Positions 15,001 to 21,000 of a stretch of DNA of 22,209 nucleotides are shown here, one piece after another. Positions within the stretch are counted from its first letter, which is position 1, and every line of letters begins with the position of its first letter. The DNA lies in the UHGV virus genome UHGV-1596397; one strand, 5' to 3'. A program made the position numbers. The DNA is from a virus.

Positions 15001-18000
15001 CAGTCTGACACCGGAAGAGACAATTGCATCGCGTTTTGTGCGCCAGATGCAGGATAAATTCCAGGTGCTGAAAGCTGTTCAGGAGAATATCCGTAAAACT
15101 GGCGGAAAAATAGACGACAGTAACAACGCTTATATGGCGGAAGAACTCTTCCACGGGAAGGCGGAAAACGACCTGAACGTGATGAAGGAGCGCTATGTTC
15201 AGCCGCTGGCTAAATTACTGGCGGACTACAAAATTGCGCAGGCCGATCTGGATGAGTACCTCTACGCCCGTCACGCGCCGGAACGTAACGCGCATATCGC
15301 GAAAATCAACCCGAAAATGCCGGACGGCGGTTCGGGGATGACCAACGCGGAAGCGGCGGAAATCATGCAGCGTGTGCGTAACAGCGGCAAACAGGCACAG
15401 TATGACCGTCTGGCAGGGATTATTGACGATATGCTGGCCCGTCGCCGTGAGATTATCCGTGAGGCAGGACTGGAAGAGAGCGGCGTGGTGGATGCCTGGC
15501 AGAAAGCCTACCGTTACTACGTTCCCCTGAAAGGGCAGGATGTTGACGGTGTGGTGTCACTGCCACGTACAGGCAAGGGATTCACCATCGGCGGGCGTGA
15601 AAGTAAGCAGGCCATGGGGCGTGCATCCCGCGCACAGTCTCCTTCCACTCAGGCGATACAGGATTTGAGCGAATCGCTGATCCGCAATCGCAAAAATGAA
15701 GTGGGTAACGCCTTCCTGAAACTGGTACAGGATAATCCAGACAAGGATTACTGGCAGGTATTCACCAATGAGCGACCGGACACCATGCGTGCGATTGCAG
15801 AGCGTGTTGATCCGGAAACCGGTGAAACCCGTCGCGAAGTTGTCGAACGCCCTGTGCCGATGGCAATGATGGCGGATCGCTACTTCACCACCAAAAAGGA
15901 CGGCAAAACTTACTACATTAAACTTCATGATCCGCGCCTGATGCGTGCGATGAAGAACATGGGGCCGGAAACCAGTAACGCCGTAATCCGTACGCTGGGG
16001 AAAGTTAACCGCTTCCTGGCAACGGTGAACACGTCGTATAACCCGGAATTTCTGGTCAGTAACTTCATCCGTGACGTGCAGACGGCGGTGATGAACCTGA
16101 AGGCGGAGCAGGGAAGGAGCGACGGTAAACTGAAAGGGCTGGATAACTTATCCGCCCTGGCTGTAGTCAAAGACAGCCGTTCTGCAATGTCAGCCGTGTA
16201 CGCCAGTCTGCGTGGCAAAACCCTCACGGGCAAAGGCGCACAGTGGCAGAAAGTGTGGAAAGAGTTTGTTGAGGACGGAGGTAAAACCGGCTGGTTTAAC
16301 ATGGGTGACCTTGAAGGCCAGCAGAAGGAAATGGATCGCCTTGTATCGCTGGCGAAGGGAGGATGGAAAGGCCAGAGTATCGGTGCATGGCATTCGTTCC
16401 TGAACCTGGTCGAGGATGCCAACGGCGCGGTTGAAAACGCTCTGCGTCTTTCTGCCTATAAACACGCCCGTGATGCCGGTTTGTCACGCCAGCAGGCGGC
16501 ATCTCTTGCCAAAAACATGACGGTGAACTTTAACCGTCGTGGTGAGCAGGGAGCGCTGATGAACTCGCTGTATATGTTTGCCAACGCCAGCATTCAGGGG
16601 ACCGCAAACCTGGTGAGAACGCTCGGACATCTTAATGGCGACGGGCCGTTACTGGAGCGCCTTCGCTGGAAGAATCTCAATGTACCGCAGAAAATCGCGC
16701 TTGCAGCTGTGGGAGCGGGTTATCTGCTTGGCTCGCTTAACCGCAGTGTGGCGGGTGAGGATGATGACGGGGTTAACTGGTACGACAAGGTGCCGTATCA
16801 TGTGAAAGAGCGTAACCTCGTCATTATGAAATCGATGTTCGGGGGCAGGGCCGGAGAGTACTGGAGTATTCCTCTGCCTTACGGGTACAACGTTTTCTTC
16901 CTGCTCGGGCATACCTCTGAAGGTGTGGCTGCTGGTGACCTGACGGCGTCCCGTGCTGCCGGTAATGTTGTCGGTGGTATCCTGGGGGCATTCAGCCCGA
17001 TTGGCAGTGAGACGTCGGAAACGCTGTCCGGGGCATTGCTGAAAAATGCAGCACCGACAATTCTGCGTCCGTTTGCGAATCTTGCCATGAACGAAAACTT
17101 CATGGGGGCGCAGATTTACCAGGAGAACATGCCGTTTGGTACACCAAAACCTGACAGCCAGCTGGGAAGACGTTCAACGCCAGAAGCGTACAAGGCGTTT
17201 GCATCCTGGCTGAATGCGTTCTCAGGTGGCAGCCAGTATCGTCCCGGCGCGGTGGATATCACACCGGAATCGCTGAAATTCTGGATTGACTATATCTCCG
17301 GAGGGACAGGGCGCTTCATTTCCAAAACCACGGATGCGGCGGTGAAATCGCTGAATGGTATTGATATACCGGAACAGCAGGTGCCCTTCCTGGGGAAAAT
17401 TTCGGGTGAGGTGATGCCGTATGCAGACCAGCAGAAGATGTACGACCGGATGACAGAGGTTGCGCAGTATCACGCAGAGCTGAAGAGTCTGACCGGTGCA
17501 GAAAGAACGGCGTTCATTGACGAGAACAACGGAAAATTGTTGATGAACGGGCTTATGCAGGATACCCGGAAGAGACTGAAGGATTTGCGCAAACAGCGCG
17601 ATGCCATTTATGCCGACAGTTCTCTCAGTCTGGCGCAGCAGGCGGCGATGGTGAAATCGGTAGAGCGGGATATGAAGGTTGCCGTGGATCGCTTTAACCG
17701 CGAGTACAACAAAAAAGTGGGAGTGGATTAACAGAAATGGCCCCGTACGGAAGTGCGGGGCTGATTAAGAAATAAACACACATTAACCTGTAATAACCGG
17801 AGCTATTAACATATAGTCAGAAAGAGTATTTCATGTGAGACAGAGAGCCGATTTATGTTTAATGAAGAAAAAGTTGCGTAAATGGCAGCGTATTTGCTGA
17901 AAAAACATGGCGGATCTATGCGTTTCATTAAGCTGATGTATCTCTCTGACCGCAAAGCAATGGAGTTGTATGGTTTTCCCATTAGTGGTGATCATTATTT

Positions 18001-21000
18001 CTCTATGAACAAAGGACCCGTTTTATCGCAGACATATTCTTTGGTTAAGGATGGAAGCGAAAACGAGTACAGTCCGTGGGAATCATGGATATCTGATGTA
18101 GCGGATCATAAGGTTGAAATGTGGCGTACATTTTCTTCTGTTGATGAGCTGGGGGAGTTATCGCCCGCAGAAATAGAGTCAATGGACATAATTTTTGGTC
18201 AATATGGAGGTTGGGATGCGTTCAGGCTTTGTGATGAAACTCACAGAATTTGCGGTGAGTGGCGCGATCCGCATGGTTCATCAATTCCAATCAGCCTTAA
18301 GGATATATTTATTGCTCTTGGAAAGTCGCCAGAAGCAGCAACAGTAATGGCGAATAGCATTTATGCGCAAAATAATCTTGATATATTATTAAGTGATCTG
18401 AGGTAGTCGGGATGATGTTCAGCCCTTATTTGTATTTACCGGGGAGGGAAGATGTTTAATTCCGATTCCCCGGCTCCACAGGCCTAACCTAACTTTATGT
18501 AACAGTCCATGCAGGGCTGAAATCTGCCTGCTGAAATAACTCCGTTAGCCCGCTAATCTGCTTTAACCTCAGAACTTCATCCTGGTCCATCCCCAGTTCT
18601 GTTCCGATACGTTCATCAGTCCAGCCAAGACGTGAAAGATCTCTGACAATATCAGACATTGAGGTTATCTGGTGTTTCCCCCTGGCTCTGTTATGTCGGA
18701 TAGTCGCGGCAATACGTGAGGTTTGTCCCTTTCGGTCTGGATTAATACAGGTTACTGGTAGCCAGCCTTTCAGGCGTTTTCCAGTAACTGTTCTTCTACC
18801 TAGTAACTGCCTATGAAAACCATCCACCACCAGGTAATGGCTTGTTTCTTCCGAAACAACAATTGGTTGAGTAAAACCGTCTTTTTCCAGAGATTGTTTC
18901 AGTAATTTTTTTTCGCTTGGGGCCATGACATTGGGATTATAATCGTTAGCGACAATTTCATCCGCTTTTACCCACAGCACACAGTCCACTGGTTCTTGAG
19001 CAAAGGGGCTGATCTCATGGAGTACGCAGCGGAGATGGTTCAGGGCCTGTATGGTTTTCTCTTCAGATTGTTCCTGACTGAAGTACTGTCGAATCATCTT
19101 GCTCAGCACCTCCACCTCTGGTGTCACAGAATTCCCCATTCCTTCCTCCTTTCATTCATACGCTGCAGGTAACGTTCATAGTGCCGGGGTTTGTTGGGGC
19201 TGAAGGAGAGCGTTCGGCACCAGAAATCATTCTTTATGAGAGTCTTACAAATACGTCGCCAGGAGGGAACATCCCGGCAGCCCAGATCATTTTCCTGTTC
19301 ATCCGGGATATCATCCGGGAATCCCCGGTTCTGATACCAGCGCAGGTAAACTGCTATCTTGTTGCGGTAGTGTTCAGCCGTTCTTTCCGGCATTACGTCC
19401 AGCAGGAAGAACGCATAGCTGCGCCAGGTATGATGGGATGGTTTTGACATCCGTTTACGCAGGGCAAAATAGGCCCCGCTTTCATTGGCATAAAGAGCCC
19501 CACTGGCAGCACCAGATACTCGTTCACACATCCGTGCCCAAGTTTCTGGCTCCAGAACATGATAAAGCCATAGTCCCTTACGCTGTTCCGGGCCAAAAGG
19601 CTCACAGACACGCATATTACGTAGAGGAATGCCTGCACGGTACATCAAATCATACAGAGGATTGTAGATTGCACAGGTTTTAGCGTTATATACCCAGATA
19701 TCGTTGGTTTTCCAGTCATACAGCGGATACATGGTGTAGTAAAAACCTTCAGGTGACGCCGTGGTCCAGGGTTTATCATCTGCATATCTCAGTTTTCGTT
19801 GGGAAACCAGTCCCATAAATCTGTTAAGAGATTCATCCGCGCGGACTCCAGTCAGTATTGCCACGCTACATTGGTTACTTGCGAACCAGGAAGAAAAAGC
19901 TGGGACAAATTCTTCAAAAGTCATGGCGTAGCGGTAAAAGGGGAAATACGCCATATCAGTAATAGCATCTTCCGGTGGCTGTCGAACCCACTCTACACCG
20001 GGCTCCCAGCATATCCACTCAGGCTGAAACTGCGAGACACCATTTACTGTCGTCAGGGGAAGTGCAACCCAGTAAAAGGTATCTGTTACATCTTGGTACA
20101 TCATCCGCATCTTCTGTATATGATCAATGGTGCATTGATACTGGGCTTCCCAGTCAATGAACAATACAGAAAAACGACGTTTCTTCCTGTAGGCCACTTC
20201 GGCTACAAGATGGAAAAGTACAGTGGAATCTTTACCGCCAGAAAAAGATAAACATACAGAAGAGAATGTTTCAAACAACCATTCAATGCGGTGAATGGCT
20301 GCTGACAAAACATCTTCTCCAGTTCTGATTTTTGTTATAGTTACCGGCATACAATCTGATAAAAATAGCGAGGGTTTGCATTTTACCTAGTAACGTTATG
20401 TAACTATTTTTTTGAATAAAGGCAATGAGATAATGATAAAAAATGTTTATCTAATGTACTGAGCTCTTCTCTTTATTGTATTAACTCTTCGATTTCAGCG
20501 GCGTTGTCGTTCAGGTATAAAAAAAGGAGCCGAAGCTCCTTTGGTATCAGAATTCAAATTGTCTTGCCCGCAGGCTTTTCAGCATTGGTCTGGCCCGCTG
20601 AACTACGAAACTCGACTGGTCAAGCCGTGCCGCCTCTCTCAGTAGCACATCTCTGTTCTTCGTCACCATGTAGATAGTCTCAAACGCAATGTCATACAGC
20701 TTGTTCGTGTATGAGGAGTTCAGCTCTTTCATTATGGGGTACAGCTGCTTGCTAAGGTCCTGGGCTTTTTCCATCCAGAGCTGCATGTAGCAAAGGAGGA
20801 TGATTTCCTCGGCTGTGAATTGCGGCTGTGGTTCTGCTTGTACTGGCTGAATGTTGCGAAGTTTCTTTTCGCACTCGATGAAGTAGCGGCGGATCTGGCG
20901 ACCTTTTTCGTTACGTTCAACCATCGCAAGCTCTTTGGCTGTGTCGAGGGTGAGGTGGTAATCCTTGCGGCGGCGGCCTGGAGTTTTCGCCAAATTTGGC

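Follow-up and report, generated by a model that had tools for sequence, protein, structure and literature searches.

We examined a Panacea-domain gene in the genome of a 933W-like short-tailed Escherichia coli phage or prophage (Sepvirinae). The window is the whole stretch of DNA that was analyzed, 22,209 nucleotides (nt) of UHGV virus genome UHGV-1596397. The gene is a degraded member of a known toxin-antitoxin (TA) family, and its locus is probably the decaying remnant of a PanA-PanT type II module; the gene itself is most likely a neutral relic in the course of being lost. A single reading frame runs from ATG 17855 through TTT AAT GAA GAA AAA GTT GCG to a TAA at 17879 to 17881 and from there, at ATG 17882, directly into a 174-amino-acid (aa) open reading frame (ORF), 17882 to 18406. 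The features on which this reading is built are the following:

17843 to 17847, plus strand: GAGAG, a weak Shine-Dalgarno-like element, read from the sequence, 7 nt 5' of the ancestral ATG 17855

17855 to 17881, plus strand: ancestral panA start with codons 1 to 8 (MFNEEKVA, identical to the family consensus MFNExKVA) and the TAA, now an 8-codon leader mini-ORF

17879 to 17881, plus strand: TAA nonsense codon, by comparison a C-to-T change in codon 9, which otherwise specifies a near-invariant Gln (sister phages and the E. coli and Salmonella homologues read CAA)

17882 to 18406, plus strand: "Panacea domain-containing protein," 174 aa, which is panA from the family Met10 on, without residues 1 to 9

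17930 to 17938, plus strand: a single 9-bp unit AAGCTGATG (KLM), a 3-codon contraction in the conserved helix alpha2 motif LKLMKLLYLADR

18412 to 18429, plus strand: panT remnant, the first six codons ATGATGTTCAGCCCTTAT (MMFSPY), starting five nt past the panA stop and ending at the deletion junction

The original prediction, made from the sequence alone, had described an in-frame ATG, eight codons, TAA, and ATG ahead of a Panacea/DUF4065-like gene, and this arrangement was borne out. Pfam analysis of the 174-aa ORF gave a match to PF13274 (SocA_Panacea) with an E value of 2.4e-19 and a score of 70.7 bits (cut-off, 25.7), extending over profile positions 2 to 112 of 113, and the ORF also matched phrog_1281 (E value, 1.4e-38). 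The match to the Panacea/DUF4065/SocA family spans the whole profile, and a homologue is predicted to fold compactly into an alpha/beta Panacea domain, as described previously (PMC10440598). The window protein carries no additional helix-turn-helix, PAD1, or ZBD domains. SocA itself is a proteolytic adaptor (a type VI antitoxin) for SocB, and nothing comparable is present in the window.

To place the family, we compared 82 family loci, 80 from GTDB species genomes and two from earlier look-ups. At 77 of these, from diverse bacteria, a homologous ORF of about 134 aa (range, about 132 to 145 aa) lies directly 3' of panA, and two of the five loci that have no partner end at a contig edge. In the intact loci the stop codon of panA (about 184 aa) is usually overlapped by the start codon of this partner gene, panT (ATGA). 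The partner belongs to phrog_19071 and had no match in Pfam, NCBIfam, or PADLOC. Its AlphaFold2 model (predicted local distance difference test [pLDDT] score, 92.1) was searched against the PDB with Foldseek, and the 27 best matches and most of the top 40 were MazF-family toxins (MazF or MoxT), with probabilities of up to 1.00 and target-normalized template-modeling (TM) scores of 0.5 to 0.63. The partner is called MazF-like on the basis of this fold search, since sequence-based naming gave nothing; with its modeled MazF/PemK fold it is presumed to be an endoribonuclease that blocks translation.

At two Pseudomonas loci of the family (L072 and L073), PanA has the N terminus (M/V)IFSEQKVAQ, as does PanA of Pseudomonas moraviensis. 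The latter begins MIFSEQKVAQ and belongs to a PanA-PanT pair that has been validated experimentally (Kurata et al. 2022, PNAS, PMC8832971). P. moraviensis PanT is a predicted EndoA/PemK/MazF-like RNase that inhibits translation and growth, copurifies with PanA, and is neutralized through complex formation with it (PMC8832971). Because the two-gene loci, the MazF fold, and the Pseudomonas N terminus match this validated pair, the PanA family of the window is the known, experimentally supported PanA-PanT type II TA module. The two share a stand-alone Panacea PanA of about 184 aa with the N terminus M(I)F(S/N)E(Q/E)KVAQMAAY, and the relatives of the window gene have the same MazF-fold partner directly downstream. 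Unlike the P. moraviensis pair, the window copy has no toxin gene, has a stop at Gln9 and a 3-codon deletion in alpha2, and lies in a Sepvirinae accessory region beside ibrBA. E. coli itself has complete panAT modules of the family, one (L007) carried by a P2-like prophage and another (L122) located in a chromosomal island near zur. The latter copy (E. coli CFS3273, NZ_CP026932, positions 2501 to 3489) has a complete panA-panT pair whose PanT is 53% identical to that of the P2-like prophage, and among 5426 complete E. coli genomes, roughly 160 have an L122-like 5' match.

A PanA-PanT module requires an adjacent, codirectional toxin gene, and of this gene the window retains six codons only. Upstream of the panA ORF is the end of a giant gene (stop, 17731) encoding a 2400-aa LPD38/LPD5/LPD1/MuF_C polyvalent virion protein, and 3' of it an 88-nt gap is followed by a convergent IbrB gene, so that the gene is an orphan with no adjacent toxin gene, as originally described. 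Searches with tblastn and jackhmmer found no partner homologue anywhere in the window, the giant protein included. The six codons ATGATGTTCAGCCCTTAT match the panT start of the closest intact relative, the E. coli P2-like prophage (ATGTCGTTCACCCCTTAT, MSFTPY), and also resemble the start of 933W L0135 (MMFTPYRRGT). Because the similarity both to 933W and to intact panT ends at 18429 (query position 575), sequence comparison identifies a deletion of panT from codon 7 onward with its junction at 18429. The original prediction had allowed for either a missing partner or action on something nonadjacent, possibly a domain of the giant protein, and the first of these is the one that stands.

The second lesion is the stop codon. 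The read-through protein, with Q replacing the stop, was used as the query in a homologue search, which returned 220 homologues at an E value of <= 1e-5 with 40 to 60% identity over 95 to 100% of the reconstructed protein. Most of them are 184 to 185 aa long, with 99 to 100% of the query covered. Nearly all of the 120 best homologues begin with MFNE(E/R)KVAQMAAYLL, and M1, F2, A8, and Q9 are each at least 90% conserved; the N-terminal comparison supports the suggestion that MFNEEKVA is the usual N terminus of the family, and the resemblance is no coincidence. Gln is encoded at codon 9 in more than 100 homologues, and CAA stands at the position of the window TAA in 933W, in Shigella phage 75/02 Stx, and in the O104:H4 Shiga toxin (Stx2) phage, as it does in every other homologue checked. 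Because homologues and sister phages carry Gln, or CAA, at codon 9, the comparison identifies the TAA as a real nonsense mutation (C to T) of the conserved Gln9 codon. In the homologues a Shine-Dalgarno element precedes the ATG equivalent to 17855. No comparable Shine-Dalgarno-like element lies ahead of ATG 17882.

Beyond the window, phage PhiR5_2, E. coli G6/7 and SCU-104, and four IMG/VR contigs also carry the T allele (TAA). Of 5426 complete E. coli genomes, 18 have an exact 58-nt match that includes this allele, and the same number have a full-length panA body. A sequencing error is excluded, since phage, genome, and IMG/VR sequences that were assembled independently share this TAA.

A recurrent codon-9 stop elsewhere in the family was also considered and rejected. 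Two homologues (P0004 and P0010) look as if they began with MAAYLL, but the CAA is intact in their DNA, and because of this their Met10 starts are gene-caller artefacts. The two entries, for which the gene caller picked an internal Met, come from an E. coli P2-like prophage and a Salmonella lambdoid prophage. PanA entries of the family are often annotated from Met10 despite nine intact upstream codons and a Shine-Dalgarno element (for example, L007, 3974 to 4534, and L008, 3916 to 4476), and the same internal-Met mis-start of P. moraviensis PanA in databases has been noted (Kurata et al., PMC8832971). The mis-annotation is systematic, with many database PanA entries of the family mis-started at Met10.

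The third lesion lies within the ORF body. The family consensus has two KLM-type copies (KLMKLL or KLMKLM; LKLMKLLYL). The unit AAGCTGATG varies in copy number among alleles (window, 17930 to 17938; L089, 2501 to 2776; L090, 2501 to 2701): the window and 75/02 Stx have one copy, the O104:H4 Stx phage has two, and strain cM8a has three. This variation suggests that slipped-strand changes have occurred within the conserved motif of the helix. An AlphaFold2 model of a full-length homologue (P0011; pLDDT, 94) was used to locate both changes. In this model residues 1 to 9 are well ordered and extend into helix alpha1 (residues 4 to 18), to which they contribute the first six residues, and the KLM unit is in helix alpha2 (residues 24 to 42). 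A sequence search found no solved structure of a PanA relative. The PanA subfamily is marked by a complete N terminus (M1, F2, A8, and Q9) and by the LKLMKLLYL motif; the window gene has neither, with a stop at Q9, a start at M10, and one KLM gone.

The same locus was then followed through the sister phages by comparison of 38 Sepvirinae-context copies, and none of the 38 is intact at this position. All eight copies with the T allele have the stop, the long body, and a single KLM (six are complete and two are cut by a contig end). All 30 copies with the C allele have a deleted body, in three deletion classes. In 933W (L003, AF125520), where positions 3156 to 3503 correspond to window positions 17855 to 18429, an internal deletion in panA leaves a 31-aa ORF, and L0135 (62 aa, phrog_1925) consists of the N-terminal 11 aa of PanT fused to its C-terminal part of about 50 aa, the core being gone; phrog_1925 matches the C termini of intact PanT with an E value of 6.5e-10. 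In the 75/02 and O104:H4 classes, panA is truncated past about codon 38. The shorter panA alleles form clusters P0003, P0016, and P0023. In E. coli S1-CAM-02-A (L006, NZ_CP145707, 1735 to 3337), an IS3-family insertion between the giant gene and panA truncates the 3' end of the former and removes the 5' part of the latter, leaving a 95-aa "SocA family protein." To judge from these alleles, the sister lineages decayed independently, each with a different lesion. A premature stop, a lost partner, and independent disruptions in sister lineages, which together characterize a decaying relic, are all found at this locus.

Among the remnant ORFs of Stx phages, 933W L0135 and the short ORFs 3' of L0134 (phrog_3658 and phrog_28947) have the same genomic position and flanks as the window gene and are allelic decay products of the same panAT. 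Those Stx phages keep the codon-9 CAA and have lost most of the panA body, and 933W keeps N- and C-terminal pieces of panT. The window, unlike 933W, has kept the panA body and almost nothing of panT. By this comparison, the hypothetical ORFs that follow the giant gene of 933W-type Stx phages are explained as pieces left from a former PanA/MazF-like module; among them are two "hypothetical" 933W features, L0135 and the short ORF before it, that are present in well over 100 Stx phage or prophage records.

These observations suggest the following history. An ancestral panAT operon would have lain past the giant virion gene, within the accessory region of 933W-like (Sepvirinae) phages. On the strength of the family literature and the predicted fold, its PanT (MazF fold) would have inhibited translation, and PanA would have neutralized PanT through direct binding. 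In the window lineage, panT has been deleted from codon 7, and the junction lies up against the end of the convergent ibrBA; panA has acquired the C-to-T nonsense mutation at Gln9 and lost one copy of the 9-bp tandem repeat, which took KLM out of helix alpha2. Translation from ATG 17855 would now end after eight codons, and ribosomes may reinitiate at the abutting ATG 17882 (TAAATG). Such reinitiation is plausible from the arrangement of the two codons, and any expression of panA would presumably proceed by this route. The product would lack residues 1 to 9 and the KLM unit, would have no cognate target, and probably has little or no function. Annotators start the ORF at the family Met10 because the TAA directly precedes it.

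To assess constraint on the remaining ORF, we compared the T-allele haplotypes of G6/7 and SCU-104. Between them panA has four nonsynonymous and no synonymous changes. The corresponding ratios in its neighbors are 16:74 for the giant gene (adjacent 2.7 kb), 0:3 for ibrA, and 0:0 for ibrB (total, 16:77). The difference between 4:0 and 16:77 gives a Fisher P value of 0.0014, a value that comes from four changes only, all in the last 35 codons.

Several observations weigh against a neutral relic. The four clustered panA changes could have come in together as one recombination patch. Downstream of Met10, every family-invariant residue is kept, and a single near-invariant position deviates. The window branch has 14 unique amino acid changes compared with 11 in an intact paired homologue, which is no clear acceleration. 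The TAAATG stop-start is well suited to reinitiation, so the protein may be made. Because the invariant residues are kept and the branch is not clearly accelerated, either the loss of constraint on panA would be recent or the body may still be under some constraint.

A function in counter-defense is a rival explanation. According to it, a truncated orphan PanA is made by termination-reinitiation at TAAATG and is kept because it neutralizes the PanT (MazF fold) of abortive-infection-type PanAT modules in the host or its prophages. It would be a decoy antitoxin against the PanT abortive-infection modules that are widespread among E. coli prophages and islands, in which the nonsense mutation tunes expression or specificity and does not kill the gene. 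We consider both the explanation as a whole and the decoy role unlikely. The notion has a precedent in orphan antitoxin-like (DarG-like) phage genes directed at DarTG1 (PMC11825919), which likewise encode an antitoxin homologue in a phage that has no toxin, and E. coli does have complete panAT modules of this family (L007 and L122). It also draws on the abutting stop and start codons, on the family-invariant residues kept in the ORF body, and on the absence of a clear rate acceleration. However, the anti-DarTG1-type genes are intact, conserved, and shown to work, whereas the window gene carries lesions that look disabling, and its counterparts in sister phages are degraded. It has lost the N-terminal segment, where conservation is highest, and a conserved helix is shortened. 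The partnered PanAs of E. coli are just 69% and 41% identical to the window PanA (the 41% value is that of L122), which makes cross-neutralization doubtful. Conservation among related phages, which a maintained decoy calls for, is not what was found: each sister lineage destroyed panA differently. The inter-haplotype changes are exclusively nonsynonymous (4:0), and the full-length body is present in only the 18 genomes noted above.

A programmed feature had been the other half of the original suggestion about the stop codon, and it fared worse than the nonsense mutation. In this case the mini-ORF and TAA would set the dosage of PanA, either as a leader peptide with translational coupling or through stop-codon readthrough. 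The stop does abut the start, and the upstream ATG has the better Shine-Dalgarno-like element. Against this, only one haplotype group, whose members are at least 99% identical, has the stop, and Gln is found in its place in more than 100 homologues and in the sister phages. The window has no tRNA genes, Rfam has no known RNA element near the TAA, and the predicted RNA structure around the stop-start is not significant (z = -0.9), nor is that of the panA-ibrB spacer. We regard a programmed feature as very improbable.

Equally little can be said for the notion that PanA acts on a nonadjacent phage partner, either a toxic domain of the giant protein, as had been proposed at the outset, or the IbrAB pair: it has physical proximity in its favor and a T allele that always co-occurs with ibrBA, but the giant protein has LPD38, LPD5, LPD1, and MuF_C domains only (Pfam), with no toxin-like domain and no similarity to PanT, a homologue of IbrA, IbrB, or the giant protein lies within 3 kb at none of the 82 other family loci, and ibrBA is convergent and beyond the panT deletion junction.

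Under the preferred reading of a decaying PanA-PanT module, what RefSeq annotates in these prophages as a "Panacea domain-containing protein" is a truncated relic, which should be left out of counts of antitoxins and defense genes. The locus offers a snapshot of a TA module eroding after the loss of its toxin and reveals no new mechanism.

The surroundings of panA are largely shared with other phages. The region from 17700 to 18500 is 99.9% identical to phage PhiR5_2, and its first 240 nt or so are common to about 170 Stx-phage records. The neighboring features are as follows:

17739 to 17762, plus strand: stem-loop directly 3' of the giant gene stop, with a predicted stability of -20.5 kcal/mol (z = -5.4; none of 200 shuffled sequences was as stable)

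18495 to 19139, minus strand: IbrB-like gene, convergent to panA

19124 to 20350, minus strand: IbrA/PAPS-reductase-like gene, convergent to panA

20547 to 21338, minus strand: AntA antirepressor ORF, the third convergent gene downstream of panA

The stem-loop is a strong, terminator-like hairpin without a U tract and sits between the giant gene and the panA relic. Between 17600 and 18600 there is no consensus sigma-70 promoter, and the sole terminator-like match in this interval (17873 to 17889) is within chance expectation. The ibrBA cassette adjoins the panA locus in all five related records whose neighbors were checked, which comprise four T-allele copies with a long body and the copy disrupted by IS3, and is absent from the 933W, 75/02, and O104:H4 types. 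IbrB is weakly ParB_N-like. IbrA has PAPS-reductase and DUF3440 domains, with weak PADLOC matches to BrxP and DndC.

The giant LPD5/LPD38 gene (10529 to 17731, plus strand) has about 2400 codons, compared with 2789 in PhiR5_2 and about 2806 in 933W, and is thus about 390 codons short of its close relatives. An in-frame stop at 10451, considered as a candidate for splitting this gene, is actually the end of a separate 421-aa gene that is annotated in PhiR5_2 too. Finally, the Rfam family sRNA-Xcc1 (RF02221) gave two matches above the gathering score, both on the minus strand, at 21217 to 21302 and 21751 to 21839 (73 and 69 bits, respectively). Of these, the first falls within the 5' end of the AntA ORF; the second is located further upstream.

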